NCBI GenBank assembly: GCA_965262465.1
Contig: OZ253535.1
Location: forward strand, 3,573,704-3,637,703
Origin: an uncultured Pseudohongiella sp.
GTDB taxonomy: Bacteria > Pseudomonadota > Gammaproteobacteria > Pseudomonadales > Pseudohongiellaceae
Reading direction: 5' to 3'
Length of the DNA: 64,000 bases
Below the pieces are notes generated by a model, which worked only from the letters and a program-made list of their open reading frames with translations, had not been told where the DNA came from and ran no database searches. Numbering within the stretch: position 1 is the first letter of the stretch; every line of letters begins with the position of its first letter. Position numbers and translations under genes: made by a program. Positions 5,624-56,438 of the stretch are shown here, one piece after another.

Positions 5624-7831
5624 TCAGCTGAGTACTTCAAGCTTGGCATAAGATAATACTAGCCATTTGCTGCCCACGGCATCGAAGTTTACCTGTACCC
5701 GGGCATTATTGCCTTGTCCTTCGTAGTTCAAAACAACACCTTCGCCGAATTTACCGTGGGCCACGCGCTGACCTAGCGAGATCTCAGTTTGTGGTACTTC
5801 GGCATTCTTGGTAAAGGATTTGCCAAAGTTTTTTCCATTCTGCCCCATGGCAGGCATGGTGCGATTTATGGTTGTTTTAAGACGGACTTCTTCAATGAGC
5901 TCTGAAGGAACTTCTTTGATAAAGCGTGACGGACGACAGAGGTTCACATCGCCGTGCATGCGTCTTGATTCAGCATGACTCAAGTAGAGCCTATTCTTCG
6001 CTCGAGTAATCCCAACATAACAAAGCCGGCGTTCTTCCTCGAGCCCCGCCAGGTTGTCCATAGACATCTTGTGTGGAAACAAACCTTCTTCCATGCCTGC
6101 CAGAAATACCAATTGAAACTCTAAGCCCTTGGCCGAGTGCAAAGTCATCAGCTGCACGGCATCTTCAGTTTCGTCGGCTTGAGTATCTCCGGCATCAAGA
6201 GAAGCCTGATCGAGAAACGCTGCGAGCAATGCATTGGACTTAAGATCAATTTCTTCTTCCATGTCGGGATCATCGAAACTGCTGGCAGCACTAATTAGCT
6301 CATCCAGGTTTTCAATTCTTGCACGTGCTTTTTCACCACCTTCTTTCTCGTGATGTGGAATCAATCCAGAGTGCTGGATGATGTGTTCGGCTTTCTCATG
6401 CAACTCAAGATCGCGACAGGCTTTATCAAGACCATCTATTAACTCCAGGAAAGCGAGCACTGCATTCGAAGCACGAGAACTAAGCAAGGTTTGATTGACA
6501 CATTCAACACAGGCTTGCCAGAGGGAGCAATTGTGACCGCGTGCAACTTGTCGAATCGTGTCGATGGTTCGACCACCAATCCCTCTTACCGGCACATTGA
6601 TGATTCTTTCCACTGACGTGTCATCGTGTCGGTTGATCAGTAGGCGCAAATAGGCAAGAGCATTTTTAATTTCAAGTCGCTCGTAGAAACGATGGCCGCC
6701 ATAGATTCGATAAGGCATACCAACACGTAGCAACGCATCTTCCAGTTCACGGGATTGTGCATTGGAGCGGTAGAGAATTGCGGCGTCCGAACGTCGATTT
6801 CCCTGATTACTCCAATCTTGTAATCGATCTACGATAAATCGTGCTTCGTCTTGTTCGTTGAATGCTTCATACAGACTTATAGGCTCACCTTCGCTACCTT
6901 CAGTCCATAAATTCTTTCCTAATCTTCCTTGGTTGTTAGCGATCAGTTTATTTGCCGCGTTCAAGATTGTAGAAGTAGAACGATAGTTTTGTTCCAACCG
7001 AATTATGTCGGTGTCTTCAAAGTCCGTATTGAACGATTGAATGTTTTCAATCTTTGCACCGCGCCAACCATAAATCGATTGGTCATCATCACCGACAACC
7101 ATCAATTGATTGTCACGACCAGCTAGCACACGCAACCAGGCATACTGAATAGTGTTGGTATCCTGAAACTCATCAACCAGGATGTATTGAAATCGTTTTT
7201 GATAGTGTTGCAATACGTGGGGGTTGTTTAACCACAGTTCATGAGCACGTAACAGGATTTCCCCGAAATCAATCATGCCCCCGCGATCACATGCTTCTTC
7301 GTAAGCCTTATACACCTCCAACATTGTTTTGGTGTAGTCATCGTTGAAATGTTCAATATTGCCAGCGCGCAATCCTTCATCTTTTTGCGCATTGATGTAC
7401 CACTGGCACTGCTTAGCCGGCCAACGCTCTTCATCTATGCGTAAGGATTTACATAGTCTCTTGATTAGCCGCAACTGATCGTCGGCATCGAGAATATGAA
7501 AATCCTCTGGCAAGCCTGCTTCCTGCCAGTGACTGCGAAGTAGCCGATGGGCAAGACCGTGAAACGTTCCAACCCACATGCCATTGAAAGATTGGCCTAC
7601 AAGCTGATCGATACGGCCGCGCATTTCTCGCGCGGCTTTATTGGTGAAAGTCACTGCCAAGATGGCAAAGGGAGAGACATTTTCGGCTTCAAGCAACCAG
7701 GCGACTCGATGCACCAAGACACGAGTTTTGCCACTGCCAGCACCTGCCAAGACCAGCAAGTTTTGAGCTGGGCTGGCGACTGCGTTGCGTTGTTGATCGT
7801 TTAGAGAATCGAGTATGTGGGATACATCCAT
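5624..7831 (-). CDS. uvrD: DNA helicase II UvrD
   Basis: Near-colinear with E. coli UvrD from MDVSHILDSLNDQQRNAV...LVLAGAGSGKTRVLVHRVAWL through ...GQRVAHGKFGEGVVLN. Confidence 0.97.
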   Translation of the reverse strand: MDVSHILDSLNDQQRNAVASPAQNLLVLAGAGSGKTRVLVHRVAWLLEAENVSPFAILAVTFTNKAAREMRGRIDQLVGQSFNGMWVGTFHGLAHRLLRSHWQEAGLPEDFHILDADDQLRLIKRLCKSLRIDEERWPAKQCQWYINAQKDEGLRAGNIEHFNDDYTKTMLEVYKAYEEACDRGGMIDFGEILLRAHELWLNNPHVLQHYQKRFQYILVDEFQDTNTIQYAWLRVLAGRDNQLMVVGDDDQSIYGWRGAKIENIQSFNTDFEDTDIIRLEQNYRSTSTILNAANKLIANNQGRLGKNLWTEGSEGEPISLYEAFNEQDEARFIVDRLQDWSNQGNRRSDAAILYRSNAQSRELEDALLRVGMPYRIYGGHRFYERLEIKNALAYLRLLINRHDDTSVERIINVPVRGIGGRTIDTIRQVARGHNCSLWQACVECVNQTLLSSRASNAVLAFLELIDGLDKACRDLELHEKAEHIIQHSGLIPHHEKEGGEKARARIENLDELISAASSFDDPDMEEEIDLKSNALLAAFLDQASLDAGDTQADETEDAVQLMTLHSAKGLEFQLVFLAGMEEGLFPHKMSMDNLAGLEEERRLCYVGITRAKNRLYLSHAESRRMHGDVNLCRPSRFIKEVPSELIEEVRLKTTINRTMPAMGQNGKNFGKSFTKNAEVPQTEISLGQRVAHGKFGEGVVLNYEGQGNNARVQVNFDAVGSKWLVLSYAKLEVLS

Positions 7832-15269: not shown

Positions 15270-15557
15270 TTAGATTTCAGTTGTGGGTTGATCGCCTTGT
15301 TGTTCAGCGACAGCTTCCGCCATCTCTTCTTCAACTTCTTCTAGTTCAACGCTTGGCTTTTCAACCAGGATTTCAGCGTCTACTAATCCGTCGGCGATCT
15401 CACGTAGAGCAATAACAGTAGGTTTGTCATTGTCTACAGAAACCATTGGGTCTTTGCCTTCGATTTGCAGCTGGCGCGCGCGCTTGCTGGAAACCATGAC
15501 GAGTTCGAAGCGGTTATCTACCTTGTCCAGGCAGTCTTCTACAGTAATTCGTGCCAT
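15270..15557 (-). CDS. rpoZ: RNA polymerase omega subunit
   Basis: [30 protein letters not shown] is the canonical RpoZ N-terminus. Confidence 0.95.
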
Positions 15558-15608
15558 TCTATTACCTGTACTACTTATCTGAGAACGATTCTGGGGTTTT
15601 CAAGGCCC

Positions 15609-15636
15609 AGAGAACAAAGACCCCGGAGACCGGGGC
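15609..15636 (-). terminator. possible attenuator or terminator hairpin between gmk and rpoZ
   Basis: CCCCGG-aga-CCGGGG stem-loop (15621-15635). On the minus strand it is followed by the T-rich tract tctttgttctc. Confidence 0.35.
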
Positions 15637-15692
15637 TTCAAGGAGCGGGGATTTTACTGAATTTCCCCTGAAAATGCATTTTTTCCCGTGTT

Positions 15693-16310
15693 TTAGCCTC
15701 TGGTCAGGCTACCCAACAGTTGGCTGAGATTCGTCTGCTGGACCACTGTTTTCAGGCCCTCGGAGCGAATAATGGACCGGATATCTTCTAATGCCCGGTC
15801 AAAGTCGTCATTCACCACGACGAAGTCAGCTTCACATACATGCTCGATCACGCTGCGGGCTTCCGCCATGCGGTCGGCAATGGTCGCTTCGTCGTCTTGT
15901 GCTCTATCTTTCAACCGCTTGGTAAGCGTTTCTAGCGATGGCGGCAGGATAAATATGTAGCAGCAATCGGGATAGAGATTTCTGATTTGTGCTGCGCCTT
16001 GCCAATCGATTTCTAAAATGACGTTAATCCCTTCAGCGAGTTTTTCATTCACCCAGTGTTGCGATGTGCCATAACGAGCACCATAAACCTCAGCGCTTTC
16101 CAGGAAGTCGCCGTTCTGTAACATATCAAGAAACGTGGCTTCGTCTACGAAGTGATAGTTAACACCATCCGTTTCGTTGGGTCGCTTGTCACGAGTAGTG
16201 TGAGAAACAGAAACACAAATCTTGTCATCGTTTTCAACAACAGCGCTTACTAGTGTTGTTTTGCCGGCGCCAGATGGCGCTGTCACGATTATGAGTTTTC
16301 CTTGCGACAT
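15693..16310 (-). CDS. gmk: guanylate kinase
   Basis: P-loop APSGAGKTTL plus SVSHTTRDKRPNETDGVNYHF. Confidence 0.95.
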   Translation of the reverse strand: MSQGKLIIVTAPSGAGKTTLVSAVVENDDKICVSVSHTTRDKRPNETDGVNYHFVDEATFLDMLQNGDFLESAEVYGARYGTSQHWVNEKLAEGINVILEIDWQGAAQIRNLYPDCCYIFILPPSLETLTKRLKDRAQDDEATIADRMAEARSVIEHVCEADFVVVNDDFDRALEDIRSIIRSEGLKTVVQQTNLSQLLGSLTRG

Positions 16311-40690: not shown

Positions 40691-40951
40691 TTTTAACTGG
40701 TTAGAGGTAGCATCGACGGTGTCGGAGCTTCTGTTGTTAAGCAAAGATTAAGGGGTTTTTGTCTACTGTTACGTAGAATATTTTGCAGGTCTGGAATTGA
40801 CTGCGCGGCAGGCTTGAAAAGCCGCGATTGGTCGCTAAAAAGCGCCCAAAAGAGTCGATCTTCGGATTATGTGAAATAAGTAGTTATTTCGTTTAAGCGC
40901 CTTGTTGAGTGGGCTTTTCACTCTGTAGGCCAGGCAGTGAGATTGAAAGCA

Positions 40952-42148
40952 ATGCATCGATTTAAAGTGTTAATAGTGAGCGTATTAGGCTTGGTCCTGG
41001 TGGCATGCCAGTCTAGCCAAAGCAGCACTAGTAGCAGCATGCCGATGCCTCCATCTGCATCTTCCAGCAGCAGTTCCAGCAGTCCAAGTATGCCATCGAG
41101 CAGTAGCTCAAGCAGTTCCAGCCAGAGCAGCTCGCAATCCAGTTCTTCAAGCCAGTCTCAGTCCAGCCAATCCAGCAGTAGCTCGAGCTCCAGCTCGTCT
41201 TCACAAGGCAGCCAGTCGGCAAGTACGGGAGCATCAATTCCCACTGCAAATCTGCCAACTTCCAGCCAACAAGGACAGAGCAGCAGTCAGGCATCAAGCA
41301 GTCAATCGGGCCAGCAGCCCGGCGGACAAGATAGCCGCAGCAGCTCAATTCCTGGAGATCAGCAGCAAGGTGGGGGACAGTCGTCATCCACCACAAGTGG
41401 CCAGGAACCGGGCCAGGCAGCAGGAACCGAGTCTCGATCACCTGGCGAACAGGGAAATGGAGGCCAAAGTGGGAGAGATGGCTCCACTGGAGACCTAAAT
41501 AGTGGTCAAAGTGGGAGTCAGGGCCAATCTGGCGGCGTTTTAGGGCGGCCAAGTGGGAATTACAGCCTGGAAAACTTGCCTGGCGGCAGCCAAAGTGGGA
41601 CAGATAGCCAGCAAACTGCTGGTGGCGGTGGCCAGCAACAGCAGAGTCCAGGAGGATCTGATGGTCGGCAACAAGTCCCTGGTGGGTCAAGTGGTCAATC
41701 CACTGCCAGCACGGGAGGCGCATCAACTGCCGCAGAACGTGCAGCTATTTTGGATGAACGGTTACGCCGCGGATATGAAACATTTGATGGCTTTATATTG
41801 AGTGAACGTGAGCGTGCTCAAAATGAAAGCAATGCCGCGGGCAGTGTTGCCATCGGCGGTGATGCTGGCGGCGGTGGCGGCGGTCAAAACCAACCACAAA
41901 CTATGGAAGAAGCAAGCTCGTCTACTCCGACTTCTGGAGTGGTTGCGGCCACTGCGAATTCAATGCCTTCTTCCAGTCAGGAAGAAGTTGAAACCTTCCC
42001 TCCACCTGATGACATTCCAAGTGGACGGGATGACGATGTAGTTGCGCGGCAGATTCGAGAAGCCGCGATGACAGAACCAGACCCAGAATTGCGCGAAGCA
42101 CTTTGGGAACAATACAGAGTTTACACAGGTATTGGTGACGAACAATGA
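40952..42148 (+). CDS. extremely Ser/Gln/Gly-rich lipoprotein with an ordinary-composition C-terminal domain
   Basis: Signal and lipobox MHRFKVLIVSVLGLVLVAC. About 250 aa are low complexity (poly-Ser, then SGQ/GGQ-rich). The C-terminal part AAERAAILDERLRRGYETFDGFILSERERAQ ... DDVVARQIREAAMTEPDPELREALWEQYRVYTGI has normal composition. ATG 40952 was chosen over the GTG at 40937. Confidence 0.6.
   Translation: MHRFKVLIVSVLGLVLVACQSSQSSTSSSMPMPPSASSSSSSSSPSMPSSSSSSSSSQSSSQSSSSSQSQSSQSSSSSSSSSSSQGSQSASTGASIPTANLPTSSQQGQSSSQASSSQSGQQPGGQDSRSSSIPGDQQQGGGQSSSTTSGQEPGQAAGTESRSPGEQGNGGQSGRDGSTGDLNSGQSGSQGQSGGVLGRPSGNYSLENLPGGSQSGTDSQQTAGGGGQQQQSPGGSDGRQQVPGGSSGQSTASTGGASTAAERAAILDERLRRGYETFDGFILSERERAQNESNAAGSVAIGGDAGGGGGGQNQPQTMEEASSSTPTSGVVAATANSMPSSSQEEVETFPPPDDIPSGRDDDVVARQIREAAMTEPDPELREALWEQYRVYTGIGDEQ
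41015..41215 (+). repeat. low-complexity Ser-codon tract (AGC/AGT/TCN) inside the lipoprotein gene
   Basis: Encodes SSTSSSMPMPPSASSSSSSSSPSMPSSSSSSSSSQSSSQSSSSSQSQSSQSSSSSSSSSSSQGSQS. Lower-grade Q/G/S-rich sequence continues to about 41720. Confidence 0.85.
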
Positions 42149-43387: not shown

Positions 43388-44935
43388 ATGTCAGAGAACG
43401 AACTCAACAATACAGATCAATCTGCTCTGGGTAATGCTGACCAATTAAGTGAAGCAGAGCGCATTGCGCAACAAATAGCGCCTCCCAAAAGTCAGAAACC
43501 TTCTCCCATAATGTGGTTAGGCCTCGGCGGTCTGTTGATCGTCGCGTTGCTGGTAATTTTCGTTCTGCCTTCCTTAGTCACCGAGTATGAATTACCGCTT
43601 GAGCGCCGCACGGAAGTTGCTAACACCGTGGTTCCCGCTACAACGGCTGAGCCAGAAGTCACAATATCTCCTTTCGAAGAAGCGCAGCGAGCCCTGCAGC
43701 GCAAAGATGCACAAGATACCTTGGCTGAATTGTTGGACCTGCAGTCAGAACTCGATCTGCTCGAAGTTAGTCAGTGGGGACAAGAAGCGTACGATGCGGC
43801 TTTGCAAGAAGCTTCTATTGGTGATGAGTACTACCGTACCCAAGATTTTCTCTTAGCTACAGAGTCTTATGCGAGAGGCAGAGATGGGCTTACGGAATTA
43901 GTCGAGTCAACGCCCGAAGTACTTGCGAGAATTTTGATTGATGCACAAAACGCCTTGAGTGCCGCTGATTCCGATTTAGCACAAGACCGTTTCTCACTGG
44001 CTCTAGTACTTGACTCAAACAATGAAACTGCACAAATCGGTTTGGAACGAGCCCAAGCGTTGGATGAAGTGACCCGCTTAATGGCAGAGGCGGACGATCT
44101 ATTTGAAGACGGTGAATTGGAAGCTGCGAGAGAGTTGTATGATCAGATTATTCAACTCGACGGCTACAACGAAGCAGCACCAGAAAAGATTGCAGCGGTT
44201 GATGCACAACTTAGAGAAAACGAATTTTCTCGCATCATGTCCGAAGGCTTCGCATTACTTGAAGCAGATGATCCTGAACAAGCTATCGCAACATTTCAAC
44301 GCGCAGCAAATCTGGGAATTAATCAAGACCAGGCACAAGCTGCTATTGTGCAAACCGAAACACAGGTTGCCAATTCACAAATCAATGCACTACGCGCGCA
44401 AATCGATTCTGCTGAAGCAAGTGAAATGTGGGCAGATGCGGTAACCGCCTATGACGGTGTGCTGGCGATTGATCCGAATCTCACGTTTGCATTGGAAGGT
44501 AGAGTCAATGCAAACCAACGCGCCAATTTAGATGCCTTCTTGGTTAACGCCATTACCAACCCAGAGCGGTTCGGAGAAGACGATGTGTTTGAAGAAACGC
44601 GGGGTTACTACTTCGTTGCGCGTGATCTTCCTGACCCAGGTCCTCGATTGGAATCGCAGCTCGATGAGTTAGAACAACTTCTGATTGATTCTCAAATTCC
44701 AATTGAAGTGAGTTTAACTTCAGACAATCTCACTGATGTGACCTTGTTGCGAATAGGAAACATAGGTCCGTTTGAACAGCACACTTTATCTCTCAAGCCC
44801 GGACGCTATGTTGCAGTAGGAAAACGAGCAGGCTTTCGCGATGTAAGAGAAGAGTTTGTAGTGGGGTTTGGACAAACTCCTGATGCAGTAGTTGTTCGAT
44901 GCACTGAGCGCGTGGTCGGCGCAAGCGGACGATAA
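43388..44935 (+). CDS. bitopic membrane protein with a periplasmic TPR-like repeat region
   Basis: One TM segment (IMWLGLGGLLIVALLVIFVLPSLV), then repeated A/L/E/Q-rich helical pairs (e.g. FEDGELEAARELYDQIIQLDGYNEAA, EADDPEQAIATFQRAANLGINQDQA, EMWADAVTAYDGVLAIDPNLTFA). Confidence 0.6.
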   Translation: MSENELNNTDQSALGNADQLSEAERIAQQIAPPKSQKPSPIMWLGLGGLLIVALLVIFVLPSLVTEYELPLERRTEVANTVVPATTAEPEVTISPFEEAQRALQRKDAQDTLAELLDLQSELDLLEVSQWGQEAYDAALQEASIGDEYYRTQDFLLATESYARGRDGLTELVESTPEVLARILIDAQNALSAADSDLAQDRFSLALVLDSNNETAQIGLERAQALDEVTRLMAEADDLFEDGELEAARELYDQIIQLDGYNEAAPEKIAAVDAQLRENEFSRIMSEGFALLEADDPEQAIATFQRAANLGINQDQAQAAIVQTETQVANSQINALRAQIDSAEASEMWADAVTAYDGVLAIDPNLTFALEGRVNANQRANLDAFLVNAITNPERFGEDDVFEETRGYYFVARDLPDPGPRLESQLDELEQLLIDSQIPIEVSLTSDNLTDVTLLRIGNIGPFEQHTLSLKPGRYVAVGKRAGFRDVREEFVVGFGQTPDAVVVRCTERVVGASGR

Positions 44936-47012
44936 AGCTGTGACAAACTCAGATCACAACTCAACAGATAATGGGGCACTTGACCCCATAGTTCCGATTG
45001 ACTTCACGCCACATGAAGTCAAAGCGAAAAAATTCACTTATCAGTTCCATTGGTTTCACGCAGTGGTTGCAGTCTTTGTACTGCTGTCATCTGTGTCGGG
45101 CTGGTTCGTACTGACGGCGAAATCAGTTTTTGTAGAAGTAGATCCAATCACCGCGTCGATAGAAATTGAGGGTGGGCTGAATTTTCGCTTGGGTCAGCGT
45201 TACCTGATACGTGCAGGCTCATACGAGATCACGCTGCGCAACGAGGGCTATCACGACAGCGTCACTAGCCTCATAGTGGGTTCCGATGCTGCGCAGACTC
45301 ATCCGTTTACCATGAGAAAATTGCCTGGATTGGTAAGCATCAACACCATCGCCATGACCGGCGCTCGTGTGCAAATCGATGGCGTGGATATTGGTGAGAC
45401 ACCACTGGTAGATGTGCCAGTCGAACCCGGAGAGCGCCAGCTCACAATCAGTAATGATCGTTATCTGGACTATGGCACCACCATAGAAATAGAAGGTCGT
45501 TCAGTTCCCCAAACTTTCGAAGCAACCTTAGAACCCGCTTGGGCAACCTTGTCGTTTACCACTTCCCCGGCTGGCGCTGACATCATCGTCGACGGTGAGA
45601 CTGTCGGCCAGACTCCGTTTAATGCAGAAATTCTGCAAGGTGAGCGGGATGTCACATTGAAGCTTGCTGGCCATAAAGCATGGCAGGAAGAGTTTGATGT
45701 CATTGCCGGCGAAGATTTTGTGGTTCCCTCAATCAACCTGGAACCGGCCGATGGCTTGGTGTTTATTCAGAGCAATCCTTCAGCTGCCAATGTCACGATA
45801 GGTGGAGAATTTCAGGGCCTAACACCACTTGAAGTAGCGTTAGCTCCGGACCAGAACCATGAACTGACCTTCTTCAAAAACGGCTATGAAATGACTCGCA
45901 GCACAGTGCGGACTGCCCCCAATGAAGAAAAGTCTGTTGTTGTTTCTCTGAGTCCGGTTACTGCCAGTGTGCAGATCGTGAGTGAGCCGGCAGATGCTGA
46001 GCTCTACATAAATGGAGAATTGTTGGGCTTGGCGAATCAGACTGTGGAGTTGATGGCGGTCAGTCAACAAATCGAGATTCGTAAAGAAGGTTACGTCCCT
46101 TATAACACCGAGTTCACATCCCGCCCCGGTTTGGATCAGGTCATACGAGTTACGTTAAAGTCGCTAGAGCAAGCGCGCCTGGAACAGATACAACCGGTGA
46201 TCACTACCGTTGCAGGGCAGTCATTGAAATTGTTCTATCCAGGTGACTTCACCATGGGCGCATCGCGCAGAGAAGCTGGCCGACGTCCGAATGAAGCGCT
46301 ACGAGATATTAAGCTGGAACGACCGTTCTATATTGGTTACCAAGAGGTCACAAACGCACAATATCGATTGTTCGATGGAGAGCATAACTCCGGCACCATA
46401 CAAGGGCTTACTCTTAACAACGAATCACAGCCCGTCGTTCGCGTAACCTGGGATCAGGCTGCTCTGTACTGTAATTGGTTAAGTGAACAGGAAGGGCTAC
46501 CGGTCTTTTATCAAGTCGAAGGCGAGGAAGTAGTTGGTTTTAATCCTGAGTCAACTGGCTATCGCCTACCTACCGAAGCGGAATGGGCTTGGATCGCTCG
46601 AACCGATGGCACTGGCAACACCTTAAAGTACCCTTGGGGTACTCAACTTCCACCACCGGAAAACGCCGGCAATTTTGGTGATGTAACAGCACAAGCCTAT
46701 CTAGGCGAAGTGATGTTTGACTACAACGATGGTTATTTCGCCACTGCACCCGTTGGATCTTTTGCTGCTAACCACTATGACATTTTTGACATGGCAGGTA
46801 ATGCATCAGAGTGGGTACACGACTATTACGGTTCTGCAGGAAGTCTCGGTGTAGAGATAGATCCGTTAGGACCGGAACTTGGACAATTTCATACCATCCG
46901 TGGCTCGAGTTGGGCGCATGGTGCGATAACAGAAATGCGATTGTCATTTCGTGATTTTGGTGTAGAGCCAAGGGATGACGTTGGCTTTCGCGTTGCAAGA
47001 TATCTCGAATAA
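44892..47012 (+). CDS. membrane-anchored protein with 5 PEGA-like repeats and a C-terminal FGE-sulfatase (SUMF1/GldK-like) fold domain
   Basis: TM segment FHAVVAVFVLLSSVSGWFVLTA. Five repeats of the type TLSFTTSPAGADIIVDGETVGQTPF...L..G...V.L...G. C-terminal FTMGASRRE...RPFYIGYQEVTNAQYRLF...RLPTEAEWAW...GNASEWVHD...IRGSSWAH. The start is either TTG 44892 (overlapping upstream) or GTG 44940. Confidence 0.8.
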   Translation: MFDALSAWSAQADDKAVTNSDHNSTDNGALDPIVPIDFTPHEVKAKKFTYQFHWFHAVVAVFVLLSSVSGWFVLTAKSVFVEVDPITASIEIEGGLNFRLGQRYLIRAGSYEITLRNEGYHDSVTSLIVGSDAAQTHPFTMRKLPGLVSINTIAMTGARVQIDGVDIGETPLVDVPVEPGERQLTISNDRYLDYGTTIEIEGRSVPQTFEATLEPAWATLSFTTSPAGADIIVDGETVGQTPFNAEILQGERDVTLKLAGHKAWQEEFDVIAGEDFVVPSINLEPADGLVFIQSNPSAANVTIGGEFQGLTPLEVALAPDQNHELTFFKNGYEMTRSTVRTAPNEEKSVVVSLSPVTASVQIVSEPADAELYINGELLGLANQTVELMAVSQQIEIRKEGYVPYNTEFTSRPGLDQVIRVTLKSLEQARLEQIQPVITTVAGQSLKLFYPGDFTMGASRREAGRRPNEALRDIKLERPFYIGYQEVTNAQYRLFDGEHNSGTIQGLTLNNESQPVVRVTWDQAALYCNWLSEQEGLPVFYQVEGEEVVGFNPESTGYRLPTEAEWAWIARTDGTGNTLKYPWGTQLPPPENAGNFGDVTAQAYLGEVMFDYNDGYFATAPVGSFAANHYDIFDMAGNASEWVHDYYGSAGSLGVEIDPLGPELGQFHTIRGSSWAHGAITEMRLSFRDFGVEPRDDVGFRVARYLE

Positions 47013-47056: not shown

Positions 47057-47881
47057 ATGAAGCAAGGCTCGCTTTACGAAACATTTTTCCAACTAGTAGC
47101 ACTGATCTTTTGTGTGATCATTGTGCATGCAACCTATGTCACCGTGATCCGGCCTAATGCCGATCTCATTCAAGAGCAGCAAACACTTCTGCAGCAGCAA
47201 GATGAAAACTTTGTTCCGGAACGGTCTGTATTCATCATTCTTCGAGATTTCGAACAAGAAACATGCATCATCTTAATGTTCTGGGCTCTGTTCATTATAG
47301 GAATGAAAGCACAGCAAACACTGAAGCAACGTTCTCTATTAGACCGAACACTTATTCAAGTTAATCAGGGCATGAGTATATTGCCCGAAGACGCAAGAAA
47401 TTATGCACGTCCCGTACAAGCACTGCCGGAAAGCGAACAGGATTTCCTGTTAGCCAGGGCGATCACTGCAGGCCTGCATCGCTTTCAAAGTACGCGCAAT
47501 ATTCAGGATGTATCCAACACGGTTAAAGATACATGTGAGACTGAAGCTGACCGAATGGAAACCGAGTTATCGCTGGTGCGATACATCGCTTGGGCCATTC
47601 CTTCTATTGGGTTCTTGGGCACCGTGCGCGGTATCGGTACAGCATTGGGGCAGGCATACCAGGCAGTAAGCGGCGATATCGTGGGGGTGACAGTCAGCCT
47701 GGGCGTGGCATTTAACTCAACATTTGTTGCTCTGGTAGTGAGCATTTTTCTGATGTTCCTGTTGCACCAGCTGCAGCAGTTACAGGATAGATTAGTACTG
47801 GACTGTCAAAACTATTGTGATGAACGGCTTATTCGCCATCTCCAAGTTCCTGATTCGGAATCTGAATTAGCAACCACGTGA
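47057..47881 (+). CDS. MotA/TolQ/ExbB-family proton channel protein
   Basis: 274 aa with two N-terminal TM segments, a cytoplasmic loop, then the family signature YIAWAIPSIGFLGTVRGIGTALGQA and a final TM segment VSLGVAFNSTFVALVVSIFLMFLL. Confidence 0.8.
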   Translation: MKQGSLYETFFQLVALIFCVIIVHATYVTVIRPNADLIQEQQTLLQQQDENFVPERSVFIILRDFEQETCIILMFWALFIIGMKAQQTLKQRSLLDRTLIQVNQGMSILPEDARNYARPVQALPESEQDFLLARAITAGLHRFQSTRNIQDVSNTVKDTCETEADRMETELSLVRYIAWAIPSIGFLGTVRGIGTALGQAYQAVSGDIVGVTVSLGVAFNSTFVALVVSIFLMFLLHQLQQLQDRLVLDCQNYCDERLIRHLQVPDSESELATT

Positions 47882-47905: not shown

Positions 47906-49249
47906 ATGAGCTTTAAAGTCATCGAGCTAAACGACAAAGCCATTAGTGTTGGCGATGAAACGGGAGTGATTATTCGCAGTCCCGGCTTTGCTTTGGCAGA
48001 TGGAAGCGAAGTGCTACTCGGTGAACAAGCGGAAAAACAGGCGCGGTTAAAGCCAACCAATAGTTACAACAAATATTGGCAAGAACTTAATCTCGATCCC
48101 ATCGAGCATGGCAATAACTTTCGCCACCATGCCGATATCGCGTTTGCCCATCTGCAACACCTGGCCGAAGAGGCTGATGTGGGTGCTGATGTAGTAATTG
48201 CAGTACCAGGCAGTTTTTCTCGACAACAACTTTCAATACTTCTCGGACTTTCCCAGCACAGCCCATTCAATATCAGCGGCATTGTCGATTCAGCATTGGC
48301 TGCGGCGCTTGCGTCAGCCAGAACAAGCAATGTTTTGTATGCCGATCTGCAGTTACACCAGGTAGTCATAACGAAACTCACTGCAAAAGAGAATCAACTA
48401 AGTACCAGCACGACAGTGCAGATTCCTGGAGTAGGTAGTCAGAATTTCACTGACCTGGTCATGCAGTTGGCTACGGGTATGTTCATTCAGCAATGTCGCT
48501 TTAATCCGCAACATGACGCTGAATCCGAACAGCAACTTTATAACGAACTTCCGCAGTGGCTTGCGCAAGCGCAACAAGACGGCAATCTAATTCTAGAGTT
48601 AAACGCCGGCGATACGATTCATACGGCAAAAATGCCAATGGATAGTTTGGTAAATAGCCTCAATGGTCATTACAAGACTATCAACAAACAACTTGCTGCG
48701 ATGGCGACAGATCATGATACTCAGTTAGTCGTCAGCAGTTCACTCGCTGAGTTACCTGGTTTTAATGCCAGCCTTCCTGCGTCACTGGACTTGATCATTA
48801 TTGATGACAATGCCGTGAATGAAACTTGTCTTGAGTATCGCGAGTTAATCACTGCGACGGATCAGGGCATAAGTTTGGTAAGTGCATTACCACTTCCAGA
48901 GGGTGGAACTACACCAAACCACAGTGCTGACCAAAAGACTGTAGCGCCTACTCATGTTTTACATGGTAGCCAGGCATTGCCGGTGAACAAGATCAGTATT
49001 GAGAACCACCAAACTATCAACGGCCATAGTGAAGCTGTAAATGTTCTCGCGTTATCGATTGCAGACCTGCCAGAAAATCTTGGCAACATCGCTAAGGAAA
49101 ATGATGGCGTCTATTTTGATAGTGGAGAACTTTCTTATCTACTTAATGGCGTTGCAACAAGCGGTGCGCGCAAGCTCGCCGTAGGCGACCGAATTCAGTT
49201 TAGTGGCAGTAACGATGTGTTGACCTTGATAAGGGTGCGCGATGTCTAG
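47906..49249 (+). CDS. divergent Hsp70/actin-fold protein with degenerate nucleotide-binding motifs
   Basis: VLLGEQAEKQARLKPTNSY, VVIAVPGSFSRQQLSILLGLSQHSPFNISGIVDSALAAALA and GSQNFTDLVMQLATGMFIQQ align with DnaK [61 protein letters not shown] and GGEDFDSRLINYLVEEF. Phosphate-1 (IDLGTTNS becomes IELNDKAIS) and phosphate-2 (DLGGGTFD becomes DLQLHQVV) are not conserved. Confidence 0.6.
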   Translation: MSFKVIELNDKAISVGDETGVIIRSPGFALADGSEVLLGEQAEKQARLKPTNSYNKYWQELNLDPIEHGNNFRHHADIAFAHLQHLAEEADVGADVVIAVPGSFSRQQLSILLGLSQHSPFNISGIVDSALAAALASARTSNVLYADLQLHQVVITKLTAKENQLSTSTTVQIPGVGSQNFTDLVMQLATGMFIQQCRFNPQHDAESEQQLYNELPQWLAQAQQDGNLILELNAGDTIHTAKMPMDSLVNSLNGHYKTINKQLAAMATDHDTQLVVSSSLAELPGFNASLPASLDLIIIDDNAVNETCLEYRELITATDQGISLVSALPLPEGGTTPNHSADQKTVAPTHVLHGSQALPVNKISIENHQTINGHSEAVNVLALSIADLPENLGNIAKENDGVYFDSGELSYLLNGVATSGARKLAVGDRIQFSGSNDVLTLIRVRDV

Positions 49250-50468
49250 CGAACACAGAGCAGCCAGACGTAAATTTAATCCAATAAGCCTGTCTTTTTT
49301 GGACGTTATGTTCTGTGGTTTTGGCGCGGTGATTCTGATTTTCCTTATCCTCGATCACAACAGCACAGTCTCTGATGTGGAATACAACCCGGACTTGCTT
49401 GCTGAGATCAATCTACTGGAAGAGGAAGTGGAGGAAGGGCAACTCGGATTAGTACGTATAAGAAATACCCTATCGGACGTCGACTTCGATGTGGTTGAAG
49501 CGCAAGGCCTGGCACGCCAGATTCAGGAACAGATCGATACTTTTCTGCAGGAGTTGGCGGCGCTCGAAAATTCCAGCGTGGCAACGGTGGAAGATGTGGA
49601 ACAACTGCGAGCAGACGTGCAACAGCTCGAAGAAGAACTGCTTCGCTTGCAGGCCAGTGCTCTGGAACAGGAAGGATCTAGCGTGCGGCAGTTTATTGGG
49701 GATGGCCAGCGACAGTATTTATCCGGGCTCTATCTCGGTGGTCAGCGCATTCTTATCGTAGTGGATGCATCCGCCAGTATGCTGGATGACACCATCGTCA
49801 ACATCATTCGTACCAGCCTCAGGGCTGATGTATATAAGAAAGAAGCGCCAAAATGGCAACGTGTTGTCAAAATTGTCGATTGGATTACCACCCAGCTGCC
49901 TATTATCAGTCGTTATCAGATTTATGCCTTCAATCAAGAGGTGCGGGCCGCCATTCCAGGTACGGAGCAATCTTGGCTAGAAGTAGCGGATCGGGACCAG
50001 CTAAATGAAGCAGTTGAACAGGTGATGGATTTGGCGCCGGAAGGTGGCACGAACTATGAGCGGCTGTTTCGTGAGGTCGCCAACATGTCGCCCCCGCCGG
50101 ACAATATCTTTCTAATTACCGATGGGCTGCCAACGATCGATGATCGCGGGGCCAGGGATCCGCTTATCTCACCAAGAGACAGGTTGGAATTATATGAAGA
50201 CGCAGTCGGGGAGTTATTACAGGGTATTCCGGTCAATATTATATTGATGCCATTGGAAGGTGATCCCAGTGCCGCAGCGGCATTTTGGGAGTTGGCCCAA
50301 TATTCCAGAGGCTCGCTGATTTCCCCGTCCAAAGATTGGCCCGGCGGTGCGTCGGCGGTGGAAGAAGACGAACTGGATGAACCGCGGGATGATAATTCTG
50401 TCGCCCGGGTAGAAAGTACAGAAGAGATTTCGGAAGATTTAGGAGTGTCCTTTCCAACGAATATTTAA
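49242..50468 (+). CDS. bitopic protein: ExbD/TolR-like Asp-containing TM helix, periplasmic coiled coil, vWA domain (paralog 1)
   Basis: N-terminus RAARRKFNPISLSFLDVMFCGFGAVILIFLIL (compare ExbD TPFIDVMLVLLIIF). Heptad-rich residues about 45-145. vWA MIDAS elements VVDASASM, GGTNY, ITDGLP. 8-nt overlap with the upstream gene. Confidence 0.7.
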   Translation: MSSEHRAARRKFNPISLSFLDVMFCGFGAVILIFLILDHNSTVSDVEYNPDLLAEINLLEEEVEEGQLGLVRIRNTLSDVDFDVVEAQGLARQIQEQIDTFLQELAALENSSVATVEDVEQLRADVQQLEEELLRLQASALEQEGSSVRQFIGDGQRQYLSGLYLGGQRILIVVDASASMLDDTIVNIIRTSLRADVYKKEAPKWQRVVKIVDWITTQLPIISRYQIYAFNQEVRAAIPGTEQSWLEVADRDQLNEAVEQVMDLAPEGGTNYERLFREVANMSPPPDNIFLITDGLPTIDDRGARDPLISPRDRLELYEDAVGELLQGIPVNIILMPLEGDPSAAAAFWELAQYSRGSLISPSKDWPGGASAVEEDELDEPRDDNSVARVESTEEISEDLGVSFPTNI

Positions 50469-50484: not shown

Positions 50485-51495
50485 ATGAGCAAGAAAAACC
50501 GCAGAGAAACAGATTCGTTTACCGTGTCTTTCCTGGACGTGGCGTCCTGTGGTTTCGGTGCCATGATCATTCTCTTGATGATCACTAAAAACTCCGACCC
50601 TGTGACCTTGGAGATCTCCGACCTGACCCCAGAGGCCACGGTTACTGAGCTGCAGGAGCAACTATTTGAGATACGTGGTGAAACCACGATTTTGAATCGG
50701 GAACTCAATGCCAAACATGAGCAACTGTCATCCCTGACAGAGCGAATTGCTCGCCTTCGCCGCGATTTGAATGACGTGCAAGGGCGCTTCAATGCCTCGA
50801 ATCAACTCTCAGATGAAATCACTGACGAAGTGGGCCGACTGGCCATCGCACGGCAAACCCTGACGGAGGAAATGCAGCGCTTGTTAGCCAATGTCGCCGC
50901 GCCGGAAGACAACGCCATTGGCGGGGTCCCGGTGGACAGCGAGTACATCATCTTCGTGATTGATACTTCGGGCAGTATGGCCAATACCCCCGGAAACTGG
51001 GACAAAATGCTCGAGGTCATCGACAATACCTTGAACGTCTATCCTGAAGTGAAGGGCATCCAGGTCATGAATGACATGGGTGACTACATGTTTAACACCT
51101 ACCGCAACGAGTGGATTCCGGATACCCCGGGAAGACGTAATCAGATCATTTCCACCTTGCGCTCTTGGCAGCCATACAGTAATAGTAGCCCTGTAGAAGG
51201 TGTGACACGCGCGATTAATACCTTTTATTCCCCGGATAAGAAAATTAGTATCTATGTACTGGGGGATGATTTTCAGCCAGGCGGGTCTATACAGGACGTG
51301 CTAAACACTATTGACCGCATCAATGTGGAAGATGCCAATGGAGACCGCTTGGTTCGCATTCATGGTATCGGATTCCCAACTATATTTATGGGGCCTCCGC
51401 GCTTTCGACAAAGCGCCTATCGCTACACCAATTTAATGCGTGAAATGACGCAACGAAATGGTGGTACATTTGTAGGATTAAACGCGACTCAATGA
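50485..51495 (+). CDS. bitopic protein: ExbD/TolR-like Asp-containing TM helix, periplasmic coiled coil, vWA domain (paralog 2)
   Basis: N-terminus KKNRRETDSFTVSFLDVASCGFGAMIILLMI. Coiled-coil-like residues about 45-135. vWA FVIDTSGSM ... VLGDD. Same architecture as the preceding gene. Confidence 0.7.
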   Translation: MSKKNRRETDSFTVSFLDVASCGFGAMIILLMITKNSDPVTLEISDLTPEATVTELQEQLFEIRGETTILNRELNAKHEQLSSLTERIARLRRDLNDVQGRFNASNQLSDEITDEVGRLAIARQTLTEEMQRLLANVAAPEDNAIGGVPVDSEYIIFVIDTSGSMANTPGNWDKMLEVIDNTLNVYPEVKGIQVMNDMGDYMFNTYRNEWIPDTPGRRNQIISTLRSWQPYSNSSPVEGVTRAINTFYSPDKKISIYVLGDDFQPGGSIQDVLNTIDRINVEDANGDRLVRIHGIGFPTIFMGPPRFRQSAYRYTNLMREMTQRNGGTFVGLNATQ

Positions 51496-54632: not shown

Positions 54633-56438
54633 ATGGCTGCTGTTGAAGAGCAAAACAAGTCAGGGAATAAGACGATGCCGCGCCCCAATGCGCCATTGGA
54701 TCTCAATGATTTTCTCGATGGATTACTTGAAGAAGGCCGGATCAAACAATCGGATATTGATCTCGCACTCAAGAGCCGTCATGCACCAGAACATCGCGGC
54801 AAGCATCCGGTGCATTTTGTGTCTGACCTTAATTTGGAAGATCAACTAAACGCCGGTCGCAATCTCGATATCGAAACCCTGACTCAATCTTTAAGTAAGC
54901 AATGTGGTCAGGACTACTACCGCATTGATCCATTAAAGATCGATGTGGCACAAGTCACCAAAGTCATGGACTACAAGTTTTCGCAGCGGCATCAGATTCT
55001 TGCCGTTGAAGATCGAGCGAACGAAGTAGTTATCGCCAGCGCAGAACCTTTTCTCGATTCCTGGGAATCGGTGCTTGAACATACCTCCGGCAAAAAAATT
55101 ACTCGCGTTGTTTCTAATCCGCTAGATATAAAACGCCTCGCCTCAGAATTTTATAGTGTTTCGCGTTCAATCCAGGGTGCGACACAAGGTCAAACTCAAC
55201 TCAAAGGCATTGGCAACCTTGAGCAAATGCTTGAGTTGGGAAAACTCAAAGACCCAGAAGCTAATGACCAGCACATCGTAAATGTCGTTGATTGGTTGTT
55301 GCAGTATGCATTCGAACAACGTGCCAGTGATATTCACATTGAACCGCGAAGAGAACAGGGCAACATTCGTTTTCGAATCGACGGTGTGCTTTACACAGTG
55401 TACTCATTACCCATGCAGGCACTCAGTGCGGTAACGAGTCGACTAAAAATTCTTGGCCGCATGAATGTGGCTGAAAAACGTAAACCTCAAGATGGTCGCA
55501 TAAAGACCAAGAGTCCAAATGGCAATGAAGTAGAACTTCGCTTATCAACCTTGCCCACTGCATTCGGTGAAAAGTTGGTTATGCGTATCTTCGATCCAGA
55601 AGTTCTGCTTAAACCGTTCGAAGAGTTAGGACTGATCAACGATGATCTGCAGCGCTGGAACAATATCACCGCAAACAATCACGGCATTGTCATCATTACT
55701 GGACCGACAGGTAGTGGTAAAACAACTACTCTTTACTCCACCTTAAAAACTCTTGCTACTGAAGAAGTAAATGTTTGCACCATTGAAGATCCGATCGAGA
55801 TGGTGGAAGACAGCTTTAATCAGATGCAAGTGCAAGAAAACATCGACCTAGGATTTGCGGATGGTGTGAAAGCCTTGTTACGACAAGACCCAGACATCAT
55901 CATGATTGGTGAGGTTAGAGACTTGCCTACGGCTGAAATGGCGATTCAGGCAGCTCTAACCGGCCACCTTGTTTTCACTACTTTACATACCAATGACGCA
56001 CCCTCAGCCATCACTCGTATGCTTGAGTTAGGTGTGCCACCTTACCTCTTAAAAGCTACTGTTATAGGCATAATGGCCCAGCGCTTGGTTCGAGTTCTTT
56101 GCCCGCATTGCAAACAACCAACAGAAGTCGAGAAAGATGCCTGGGAAACTTTAACGTCGCCGTGGAAAGTTAAGTTGCCGAAAAAAGCAGCCAAGGCTGA
56201 TGGATGTTTGGAGTGTCGTGAAACAGGTTTCCTCGGTCGAGAAGGCATATACGAAGTAATGCCGTTTACCGAATCATTATTCCGCTATGCCGATGACAAA
56301 TCGGATCTACCGGAATTACGTAAACAAGCTTATAAAGAAGGCATGTTAAGCCTACGTTTGAGCGGTGCTCAAAAAGTGGCGGCAGGACTCACGACTGTTA
56401 ACGAAGTTCTGCGGGTCACACCCGATATGCAGAATTAA
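54633..56438 (+). CDS. GspE/PilB-family secretion ATPase (T2SS/T4P assembly ATPase type)
   Basis: 601 aa with a T2SSE_N-like N-domain, Walker A GPTGSGKTTT, Asp and His boxes (IMIGEVRD, GHLVFTTLHTNDA) and a tetracysteine motif CPHC...CLEC. Confidence 0.9.
   Translation: MAAVEEQNKSGNKTMPRPNAPLDLNDFLDGLLEEGRIKQSDIDLALKSRHAPEHRGKHPVHFVSDLNLEDQLNAGRNLDIETLTQSLSKQCGQDYYRIDPLKIDVAQVTKVMDYKFSQRHQILAVEDRANEVVIASAEPFLDSWESVLEHTSGKKITRVVSNPLDIKRLASEFYSVSRSIQGATQGQTQLKGIGNLEQMLELGKLKDPEANDQHIVNVVDWLLQYAFEQRASDIHIEPRREQGNIRFRIDGVLYTVYSLPMQALSAVTSRLKILGRMNVAEKRKPQDGRIKTKSPNGNEVELRLSTLPTAFGEKLVMRIFDPEVLLKPFEELGLINDDLQRWNNITANNHGIVIITGPTGSGKTTTLYSTLKTLATEEVNVCTIEDPIEMVEDSFNQMQVQENIDLGFADGVKALLRQDPDIIMIGEVRDLPTAEMAIQAALTGHLVFTTLHTNDAPSAITRMLELGVPPYLLKATVIGIMAQRLVRVLCPHCKQPTEVEKDAWETLTSPWKVKLPKKAAKADGCLECRETGFLGREGIYEVMPFTESLFRYADDKSDLPELRKQAYKEGMLSLRLSGAQKVAAGLTTVNEVLRVTPDMQN

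Follow-up and report, generated by a model that had tools for sequence, protein, structure and literature searches.

The gene considered here lies in a 64,000-nucleotide stretch of DNA (the window) from an uncultured Pseudohongiella sp. (GTDB family Pseudohongiellaceae, Gammaproteobacteria; assembly GCA_965262465.1, contig OZ253535.1, positions 3,573,704 to 3,637,703 of the forward strand). It is an open reading frame (ORF) of 447 codons with an ATG start, at positions 47906–49249 of the + strand, and it is wedged, as a sequence-only reading of the window had stated, between the gene of a MotA/ExbB/TolQ-type channel protein and two genes for vWA proteins. Our results indicate that it encodes a cytoplasmic protein of 447 amino acids (aa) in which an Hsp70-type nucleotide-binding domain (NBD) with a remodelled cleft is followed by an FHA-type domain. 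It is a genuine, widely conserved gene. A word-indexed search returned at least 431 homologs, every one of them unnamed or annotated as 'hypothetical', and a profile run against 1.84 billion representative proteins returned 1,670 clusters (50% identity) at E ≤ 1e-3 and 870 at E ≤ 1e-30. The family is therefore large, with at least 1,670 clusters at 50% identity, and has neither a Pfam nor an NCBIfam model. Scans of the 447-aa protein with Pfam, NCBIfam and PADLOC gave no usable match (NCBIfam matches had E ≥ 0.006, far under the cutoffs), a phmmer search of PDB sequences gave chance matches to ribosomal protein S1 only, and a tblastn search of plasmids with one relative gave none. The features of the gene are as follows, with model strands (E) and helices (H) numbered by residue.

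47906–49249, + strand: whole gene, 447-aa cytoplasmic protein with Hsp70-NBD-like domain, linker and FHA-like domain (ORF, homologs, model)
47906–48895, + strand: Hsp70-type nucleotide-binding-domain fold, aa 1–330 (Foldseek top 50 all Hsp70; profile match to Ssz1, E=3e-4)
47915–47956, + strand: first beta-hairpin, aa 4–17, at the position of the phosphate-1 loop, KVIELNDKAISVGD (strands E4–9 and E12–17)
48269–48307, + strand: strand end and helix start GIVDSALAAALA, aa 122–134 (E122–128, H129–134)
48329–48388, + strand: second beta-hairpin, aa 142–161, at the position of the phosphate-2 loop, YADLQLHQVV (strands E142–148 and E152–161)
48482–48541, + strand: most conserved stretch of the family, FIQQCRFNPQHDAESEQQLY, aa 193–212, candidate partner-binding surface (conservation; model helices)
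48719–48766, + strand: position of the adenosine Gly-Gly motif, QLVVSSSLAELPGF, aa 272–287 (E272–276, H278–281)
48896–48946, + strand: disordered, variable interdomain linker, aa 331–347 (predicted local distance difference test, pLDDT, below 50 at aa 334–344; identity 12%; length varies)
48947–49246, + strand: FHA-fold domain, aa 348–447, without the residues that bind phosphothreonine (pThr), N414, G427 and D428 being kept (domain model, Foldseek, Pfam matches of homologs, EmbR alignment)
49242–49249, + strand: last 8 nucleotides of the gene, stop codon included, shared with the start of vWA paralog 1; translational coupling (ATG at 49242, TAG at 49247–49249)

An AlphaFold2 model of the protein, built on 35 homologs, reached a pLDDT of 86.7 and a predicted TM-score (pTM) of 0.70, with residues 334–344 as the sole disordered segment. 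The sequence-only reading had proposed an Hsp70/actin fold and had named a Foldseek comparison as a check, and the top 50 PDB matches were indeed all Hsp70s, with E around 1e-16 (5e-17 to 3e-15), among them Ssb, DnaK, BiP, mortalin, Hsc70, Ssz1 and Hsp110. Entries that hold only an NBD aligned over about 380 columns, with TMt 0.66–0.74, a root-mean-square deviation of about 4 Å and 12–16% identity. At the level of sequence, a diverse family profile (A2) matched Ssz1 over profile positions 79–374 (E=3e-4) and, in HMMER, dozens of Hsp70s across positions 13–51; among the profiles tried, only this more diverse one reached Ssz1 and EmbR in the PDB, and a profile of close homologs (A1) gave no meaningful match to PDB sequences. 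An hhalign comparison of A1 with the NBD of E. coli DnaK aligned 27 columns, FALADGSEVLLGEQAEKQARLKPTNSY with DnaK 40–66, and was not significant. The Pfam model of HSP70 (PF00012) matched neither the 447-aa protein nor any of 35+30 relatives (E ≤ 10 or E ≤ 1). The Hsp70-type fold is confirmed chiefly by the predicted structure, the sequence evidence being weaker and pointing in the same direction. Three DnaK-like blocks had been claimed from the letters alone; the second and third fall within the profile alignment to Ssz1 (E=3e-4), and the first is recovered by the HMMER matches to many Hsp70s, although hhalign alone does not make it significant. With a highest Kyte-Doolittle value of 1.21 over 19 residues and a first strand (beta1) that starts at residue 4, the protein has no signal peptide or transmembrane (TM) segment, as had been stated, while its neighbours show clear TM peaks.

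Residues were equated with those of DnaK from the secondary-structure register and HMMER/hhalign alignments, not by superposition, and their conservation was taken from 427 near-full-length relatives, whose identity to the 447-aa protein has a median of 33% and a minimum of 24% and whose organism names are labels of metagenome-assembled genomes (MAGs). The canonical Hsp70 motif (DxGTT at phosphate-1, DLGGGTFD at phosphate-2, GG at the adenosine) is kept in none of the 427, and in the window the three positions are filled by IELNDKA, DLQLHQVV and VSSSLAELPG. Thus the Gly and Thr residues are gone from all three sites, as the earlier reading held, and alignment brings back no normal ATPase motif. 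The first hairpin (KVIELN-DK-AISVGD, with model strands; IELNDKAIS at its centre) is two residues shorter than that of DnaK, by count against the DnaK sequence, and conserves E7 (94%, plus D), N9 (93%) and D10 (98%). The second (YADLQ-LH-QVVITK) is free of glycine and conserves D/E147 (99%), L150 (96%) and H151 (97%). Between them, D128, which aligns with E171 of DnaK, is conserved in 97%, and its segment aligns with 'FINepsAALLA' of Ssz1. Where DnaK has VGGQTRMP stands VVSSSLAELPGF (model region QLVVS-SSLAELPGF), in which the Gly-Gly is absent and P284 (99%) and G285 are conserved. Position 56, aligned with K70 of DnaK, is Arg or Lys in 75% of members.

It had been claimed that these motifs are eroded. 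This part of the claim does not hold, given that the replacing residues E7, N9, D10, D128, D147, L150 and H151 are 93–98% conserved in the 427 relatives. Such conservation of the replaced positions indicates that the cleft, as judged from sequence, is a remodelled and selected site rather than a decayed one. Canonical ATP binding by the cleft appears unlikely, and the binding of a ligand, metal or partner appears likely. We infer that the canonical Hsp70 ATPase activity has been lost; the stronger term 'non-catalytic' is unproven. The most conserved stretch of the family lies away from these loops: FIQQCRFNPQHDAESEQQLY is the loop that joins the long helices H178–197 and H205–225, and it is assigned to subdomain IIB. 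R198, E208 and Q209 are 100% conserved, P201 is conserved in at least 94% overall and in 100% of the 282 most distant relatives, and H203 reaches 96%. In Hsp70s the IIB face serves nucleotide-exchange factors, which makes this loop a candidate partner surface.

The region that follows the linker had been described as separate, beta-rich and FHA-like, and this was borne out. Modelled alone, the C-terminal domain (aa 345–447) forms 11 strands with a pLDDT of 88.7, its alignment containing canonical FHA relatives that possibly aided the model. Its top 50 PDB matches in Foldseek were all FHA domains (TM-score 0.53–0.71), including those of KIF1A, Ki67, MDC1, EmbR and GarA and the cytoplasmic domain of YscD (4a0e). 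The family profile A2 independently matched the FHA domain of M. tuberculosis EmbR (E=4e-4). Although a PF00498 scan of the window protein gave no match, Pfam FHA matched 3 of 30 distant relatives (best E 5e-14) over columns aligned with aa 348–447, and precomputed annotation assigns PF00498 to about 70 of the 120 top-scoring distant relatives, some being named 'FHA domain-containing protein' by NCBI. When the 447-aa protein was aligned with EmbR and canonical relatives, the loop GR, S-R-x-H and S-x-x-G-T were absent, their counterparts being ...IENHQ..., ...LPENLG... and ...SGELSYLLN..., and of the pThr residues only the Asn N414 is kept; the earlier remark that no phosphopeptide-binding residues could be seen was therefore correct. 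The SxxH and SxxGT signature is kept in most of the wider family. On the model, the C-terminal domain of the window protein is a degenerate FHA domain. The family is ancestrally an Hsp70 fold joined to an FHA domain, a point that the sequence-only reading did not contain.

The genes around the 447-aa gene form a cluster that begins, in the window, with a TPR lipoprotein, a Ser-rich lipoprotein, a 394-aa lipoprotein, a TM-TPR protein and a PEGA/FGE-sulfatase-like protein, and continues with the MotA-like gene, the 447-aa gene, the genes of vWA paralogs 1 and 2 (vWA1, vWA2), two lipoprotein genes and an M48 peptidase gene. Those that matter most for what follows are listed here; MIDAS stands for metal-ion-dependent adhesion site.

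43388–44935, + strand: TM and TPR protein, 515 aa, homologous to the non-kinase part of Ser/Thr kinases elsewhere, with no kinase domain (blastp, Pfam)
44892–47012, + strand: TM-anchored protein with 4 PEGA domains and an FGE-sulfatase-like domain (Pfam; in 26/26 loci with enough upstream sequence)
47057–47881, + strand: MotA/ExbB/TolQ-family channel protein, directly upstream of the 447-aa gene (PF01618, 7.5e-16)
49242–50468, + strand: vWA paralog 1, with a basic tail, a TM helix with Asp (SFLDVMFCGFGA), a coiled coil and a vWA domain with a DASAS MIDAS
50485–51495, + strand: vWA paralog 2, same architecture as paralog 1 (SFLDVASCGFGA; DTSGS MIDAS)

The position of the gene is conserved to a degree that decisively passes the check proposed with the earlier reading. 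It was examined in 86 genome loci, mostly MAGs labelled Pseudohongiella, Pseudohongiellaceae, OM182 or Pseudomonadales, and in 80 metagenome loci of more distant relatives, where counts were restricted to loci with sufficient flanking sequence (loci are cited below by L numbers). In the genomes the MotA-like gene is adjacent in 86/86 and both vWA genes are present in 84/86. In the metagenomes the 447-aa gene is immediately preceded by the MotA-like gene and immediately followed by vWA1 in 58/58 each, vWA2 comes next in 40/40, and the PEGA/FGE gene is found in 26/26. One locus (L086) has the order PEGA-FGE, 447-aa homolog, small ORF, MotA and vWA; with its order changed and its partners the same, it indicates that the linkage of the 447-aa gene survives rearrangement. 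The overlap of 8 nucleotides between the 447-aa stop codon and the vWA1 start, from ATG 49242 to TAG 49249, is as the earlier reading gave it, and comparable overlaps occur in L002, L087, L088 and L089 (about 11 nucleotides in L002, L087 and L089).

Both vWA paralogs begin with a short basic tail and an invariant SFLD(V/I)xxCGFGA helix, which is also found in loci as distant as L084–L092. In the window these TM helices lie at 49290–49352 and 50524–50586 (+), with a buried Asp and a conserved Cys. The DxSxS MIDAS motifs (DASAS, DTSGS) are kept by both paralogs in every lineage checked. Scans of the cluster proteins with Pfam and NCBIfam gave no match to the ExbD, TolR or MotB families, and the Pfam ExbD model found nothing in the N-terminal 61 aa of the vWA proteins; it is therefore the motif, together with PMC12204202 (Mol Biol Evol 2025), that supports calling the helix TolR/ExbD-like. 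This study reported that tolQ-like genes are found together with heterologous vWA pairs, TM-tethered proteins whose 'transpore helix' (TPH) carries a proton-binding Asp and was modelled within a TolQ-like pentamer, as a prediction. An example of such a TolQ/TPH-vWA cluster from Idiomarina loihiensis is included there. The window resembles this class in having a tolQ-like gene, no tolR or exbD, and paired vWA proteins with an Asp helix. It is unlike the class as described, since the text and the examined supplementary files of PMC12204202 mention no Hsp70-like/FHA protein, kinase or PEGA/FGE protein. A literature search for an Hsp70/FHA protein associated with MotA, ExbB or vWA found no description; Kaur et al. 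2020 (PMC7159879) deals with other Hsp70- and vWA-containing systems, not with this cluster. The 447-aa protein is thus an undescribed and apparently obligatory component of a class of motor that is so far only predicted. A reading of the cluster as a defence system was rejected, PADLOC having given only a weak ZorA match for the channel (E=0.0025) and non-specific matches for the vWA coiled coils.

Paralog 1 of the window also carries a C-terminal extension ending ...SFPTNI, of about 40 aa (50343–50465, +; ...EEISEDLGVSFPTNI). In most other lineages vWA1 ends ...SPSRDWP, and an end of the type ...FVPSEE..SFPVDI-stop closes a separate small secreted acidic protein of 60–106 aa, whose gene lies between the PEGA/FGE and MotA-like genes (L001:8827–9099, L084:8944–9180, L088:8971–9189, L090:8983–9168). 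The two arrangements, extension and separate small protein, resemble a gene fusion or relocation. The SFPTNI/SFPVDI-type end motif is a candidate ligand of the vWA MIDAS.

A possible input to the FHA domain is found upstream. In L087, L089, L090 and L091 the gene directly upstream of PEGA/FGE encodes a protein of 650–833 aa with Pkinase, TM and TPR regions, and in blastp the 515-aa protein of the window matches the kinases of L087 and L089 (E 2e-63 and 3e-53; kinase aa 351–829 and 298–800), kinase residues 351–829 aligning to its residues 41–505. The 515-aa protein is homologous to the non-kinase part, and the window lineage therefore has the same protein minus the kinase domain. The kinase domain is present in 16 of the 27 assessable non-redundant lineages (these four loci and 12 more). 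In the lineage of the window, whose close relatives are labelled Pseudohongiella or Pseudohongiellaceae, neither the kinase domain nor the pThr-binding residues are found. With a length of only 10–17 residues and without any conserved Thr, the cytoplasmic vWA tails contrast with the juxtamembrane linkers of the kinases, which are long and rich in Ser/Thr, and the kinase linker is accordingly the more likely FHA target. By analogy with the FHA-kinase systems PknB-GarA/FhaA and PpkA-Fha1 of the type VI secretion system (T6SS), this Thr-rich linker would be the most plausible target. The clusters examined showed no gene for a PP2C phosphatase.

Taken together, the explanation that we favour, with a probability of roughly 0.55, is that the 447-aa protein acts in the cytoplasm on the TolQ-like/vWA-pair motor, as an adaptor or a regulator. 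The core of the machine would be a MotA/TolQ-like pentamer and a heterodimer of vWA proteins, whose TM helices bear a TolR/ExbD-like Asp; it would be an envelope machine driven by the proton-motive force, of which the 447-aa protein would be a soluble accessory subunit on the cytoplasmic side. Its first module would be an Hsp70-type NBD without a substrate-binding domain, the glycine-rich loops being swapped for family-specific residues, with a near-invariant set of E7-x-N9-D10, D128, D147-x-x-L150-H151 and R198/P201/H203/E208/Q209. Without a canonical ATPase cycle, the two-lobed cleft and the conserved loop may serve to bind or switch some cytoplasmic part of the machine. The second module, the FHA domain, would dock on a phosphorylated partner. 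The ancestral role would most likely be to couple the motor to threonine-phosphorylation signalling, through the kinase whose gene lies two positions ahead of the channel gene, and in the window lineage the protein may act as a scaffold or regulator without need of phosphorylation, its synthesis being kept in step with that of vWA paralog 1 by the gene overlap. The two folds, the residue replacements with their conservation, the strict synteny and the distribution of the kinase are shown by the analysis, whereas the loss of ATPase activity, the physical binding to the motor, which synteny and overlapping genes suggest, and the regulatory role are inferred.

Several observations weigh against this explanation. 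Within the clade of the window (L001–L083) the 447-aa protein is the fastest-evolving core gene, which is odd for a tightly docked structural subunit: its median identity of 49% is the lowest, compared with 79% for the MotA-like protein, 80% for vWA2 and 70% each for vWA1 and the PEGA/FGE protein, and within it the values are 58% for the NBD, 40% for the FHA domain and 12% for the linker. This low identity fits a peripheral regulatory subunit, and the FHA domain is possibly under relaxed constraint after the loss of phospho-signalling. The acids E7, D128 and D147, aligned with the Mg/catalytic D8, E171 and D194 of DnaK, are conserved, and together with the basic position 56 they make phosphoryl- or metal-dependent chemistry in the cleft conceivable. 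The arginine of the canonical loop 'GR' is absent in most family members, so that pThr binding is unproven even in 'canonical' ones. The FHA signature occurs in 15 of the 16 lineages with the kinase and in 8 of the 11 without it (Fisher p=0.27), a trend only, and the joint loss of kinase and FHA signature in the window lineage is therefore an observation and not an established rule. Moreover, one lineage with the kinase (L087/L105) has a degenerate FHA domain.

The conserved acids also give the starting point for a rival that we consider doubtful, namely that the protein is an enzyme or a nucleotide- or metal-dependent switch, whose cleft binds Mg2+ and a nucleotide or phosphorylated ligand in a non-canonical manner and whose lobe closure drives, gates, assembles or disassembles the motor. 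The acids aligned with D8, E171 and D194 are 94–99% conserved, H151 reaches 97%, position 56 is basic in 75%, and the columns of the cleft are the best conserved of the protein; Ssz1, to which the family profile comes closest in the PDB, is an atypical Hsp70 and binds ATP without hydrolysing it. Against such a switch, however, the Gly/Thr of both phosphate hairpins and the adenosine Gly-Gly are swapped for bulky residues in 427/427, the first hairpin is two residues shorter than that of DnaK and no member has a canonical motif, nor does the cluster contain a gene for a nucleotide-exchange factor or J-protein. Hsp70 ancestry, translational coupling to vWA paralog 1 and an evolution faster than that of the motor proteins, which fits a transient interaction, would also suit an assembly chaperone that holds the vWA basic tails, the Asp-bearing TM helices or a MotA intermediate until 5:2 insertion and is absent from the finished machine. 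We regard this as improbable, as the protein lacks the Hsp70 substrate-binding domain and ends in an FHA domain, the ATP loops required for a chaperone cycle are absent, and the FHA and kinase link suggests signalling rather than folding.

The fold superfamily further admits a cytoskeletal or positioning role akin to that of the actin-like MreB, FtsA or ParM, with polymers under the membrane that localise the motor, and FtsA and PilM show that actin/Hsp70-type folds can tether bitopic membrane proteins. This is very unlikely here: the top 50 structural matches are all Hsp70s and include none of MreB, FtsA, PilM and ParM, there is no amphipathic membrane-targeting helix, and the nucleotide loops needed for polymerisation are missing. 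A hitch-hiking passenger gene with a function unrelated to its motor neighbours is scarcely credible, given that the same neighbours occur in every locus examined, with relatives down to about 30% identity, that the partners are kept despite the reordering in L086, and that the coding regions overlap. A bolder form of the adaptor or regulator reading can be put forward tentatively, as a clutch or brake. The NBD would be a ligand- or partner-operated clamp, engaging the cytoplasmic face or the rotor tails via the E-N-D / D / D-x-x-L-H cleft and the RFxPxH...EQ loop, with the FHA domain, in lineages that have the kinase, placing this clutch under a periplasm-sensing TM Ser/Thr kinase, and the protein could then be the first cytoplasmic regulator of a 5:2 motor of the MotA/TolQ/ExbB class.

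Comparison with known systems places the 447-aa protein beside several of them and within none. Ssz1 is a eukaryotic, non-hydrolysing scaffold Hsp70 that pairs with a J-protein, keeps its nucleotide loops and has a truncated substrate-binding domain. As part of the yeast ribosome-associated complex (PDB 7x3k_B, 4gni), it shares with the 447-aa protein the Hsp70 NBD fold and is its best profile match and a high Foldseek match in the PDB, but the 447-aa protein, encoded in the operon of a membrane motor, lacks the Gly/Thr loops and has an FHA domain in place of the substrate-binding domain. The likeness to Hsp70/DnaK (PF00012) lies in the NBD fold, the acids at the D8, E171 and D194 positions and the landmarks 'vGe.A..qa...P.n', 'aVP..F...Q' and 'lGg.nfd'; unlike these proteins, the 447-aa protein has no PF00012 match, is 12–16% identical, has its phosphate-1, phosphate-2 and adenosine motifs replaced, and is without the Hsp70-type interdomain linker, the beta part of the substrate-binding domain and the lid. 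Three features that define Hsp70s are thus missing: a match to the family's sequence model, the motifs for the nucleotide and a substrate-binding domain.

Functional analogies are offered by PilM, which binds the PilN tail, the cytoplasmic domain of GspL/EpsL, and FtsA. These are actin-fold modules encoded beside bitopic proteins with TM, coiled-coil and periplasmic domains, which link the cytoplasm to the envelope, and GspL is an example of an actin fold that has lost nucleotide binding. In contrast to the 447-aa protein, PilM, FtsA and GspL, which like MreB are not in the Foldseek top 50, carry no FHA domain and have no linkage to a MotA/TolQ-type channel. The T6SS system Fha1-PpkA-PppA likewise ties a cytoplasmic component to a trans-envelope machine through an FHA domain, with input from a TM Ser/Thr kinase, as encoded in 16/27 clusters here, and YscD/PrgH of the type III secretion system (T3SS) have a phospho-independent FHA-like cytoplasmic domain, YscD (4a0e) being among the structural matches. 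The pThr-binding residues are absent from YscD as well. T6SS Fha1 and T3SS YscD have no Hsp70-fold domain, and they belong to secretion systems and not to MotA/TolQ-vWA motors. By analogy, the 447-aa protein may act like the PilM/GspL/FtsA adaptors and the Fha1/YscD FHA modules, while being a member of none of these groups.

The proton-driven 5:2 motors (MotAB, ExbBD, TolQR, GldLM and ZorAB) are a fast-moving field, in which the TolQ-like/vWA-pair class, still without a known function or regulator, was predicted only in 2025. The 447-aa gene would supply this class with an apparently obligatory cytoplasmic partner and with a signalling handle, in the form of the FHA domain and, in many lineages, a TM Ser/Thr kinase. 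It is also a clear natural case of the nucleotide loops of an Hsp70 ATPase fold giving way to another conserved site. About ten invariant residues offer targets for point mutants, which could inform how such motors switch.

Some further observations concern the remainder of the cluster. The best NCBIfam match of the PEGA/FGE protein is the ring lipoprotein GldK/PorK of the type IX secretion system (5e-29, far below the cutoff); with the TTG start that is listed for it, the gene shares 44 nucleotides with its upstream neighbour, and the true start may be further downstream. The Ser-rich lipoprotein-like ORF (40937–42148, +) has very long low-complexity tracts of poly-Ser/Gln/Gly and is conserved in distant clusters (L088, L089) only in its C-terminal 150 aa or so, and a long antisense ORF inside it (41028–41726) is probably a repeat artefact. 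L087 has extra signalling genes, one for an FHA protein that stands alone and one for a small protein next to the kinase (6732–7310 and 15385–15909, both –), the latter being FHA-like by eye and without a Pfam match. A protein with CHAT and FGE-sulfatase domains is encoded beside the related cluster of L088 (13716–15698, –). In the window, the M48 peptidase gene is followed by the gene of a secretion ATPase of the MshE/T2SS-E type (54633–56438, +), which was detected in 56/86 loci.

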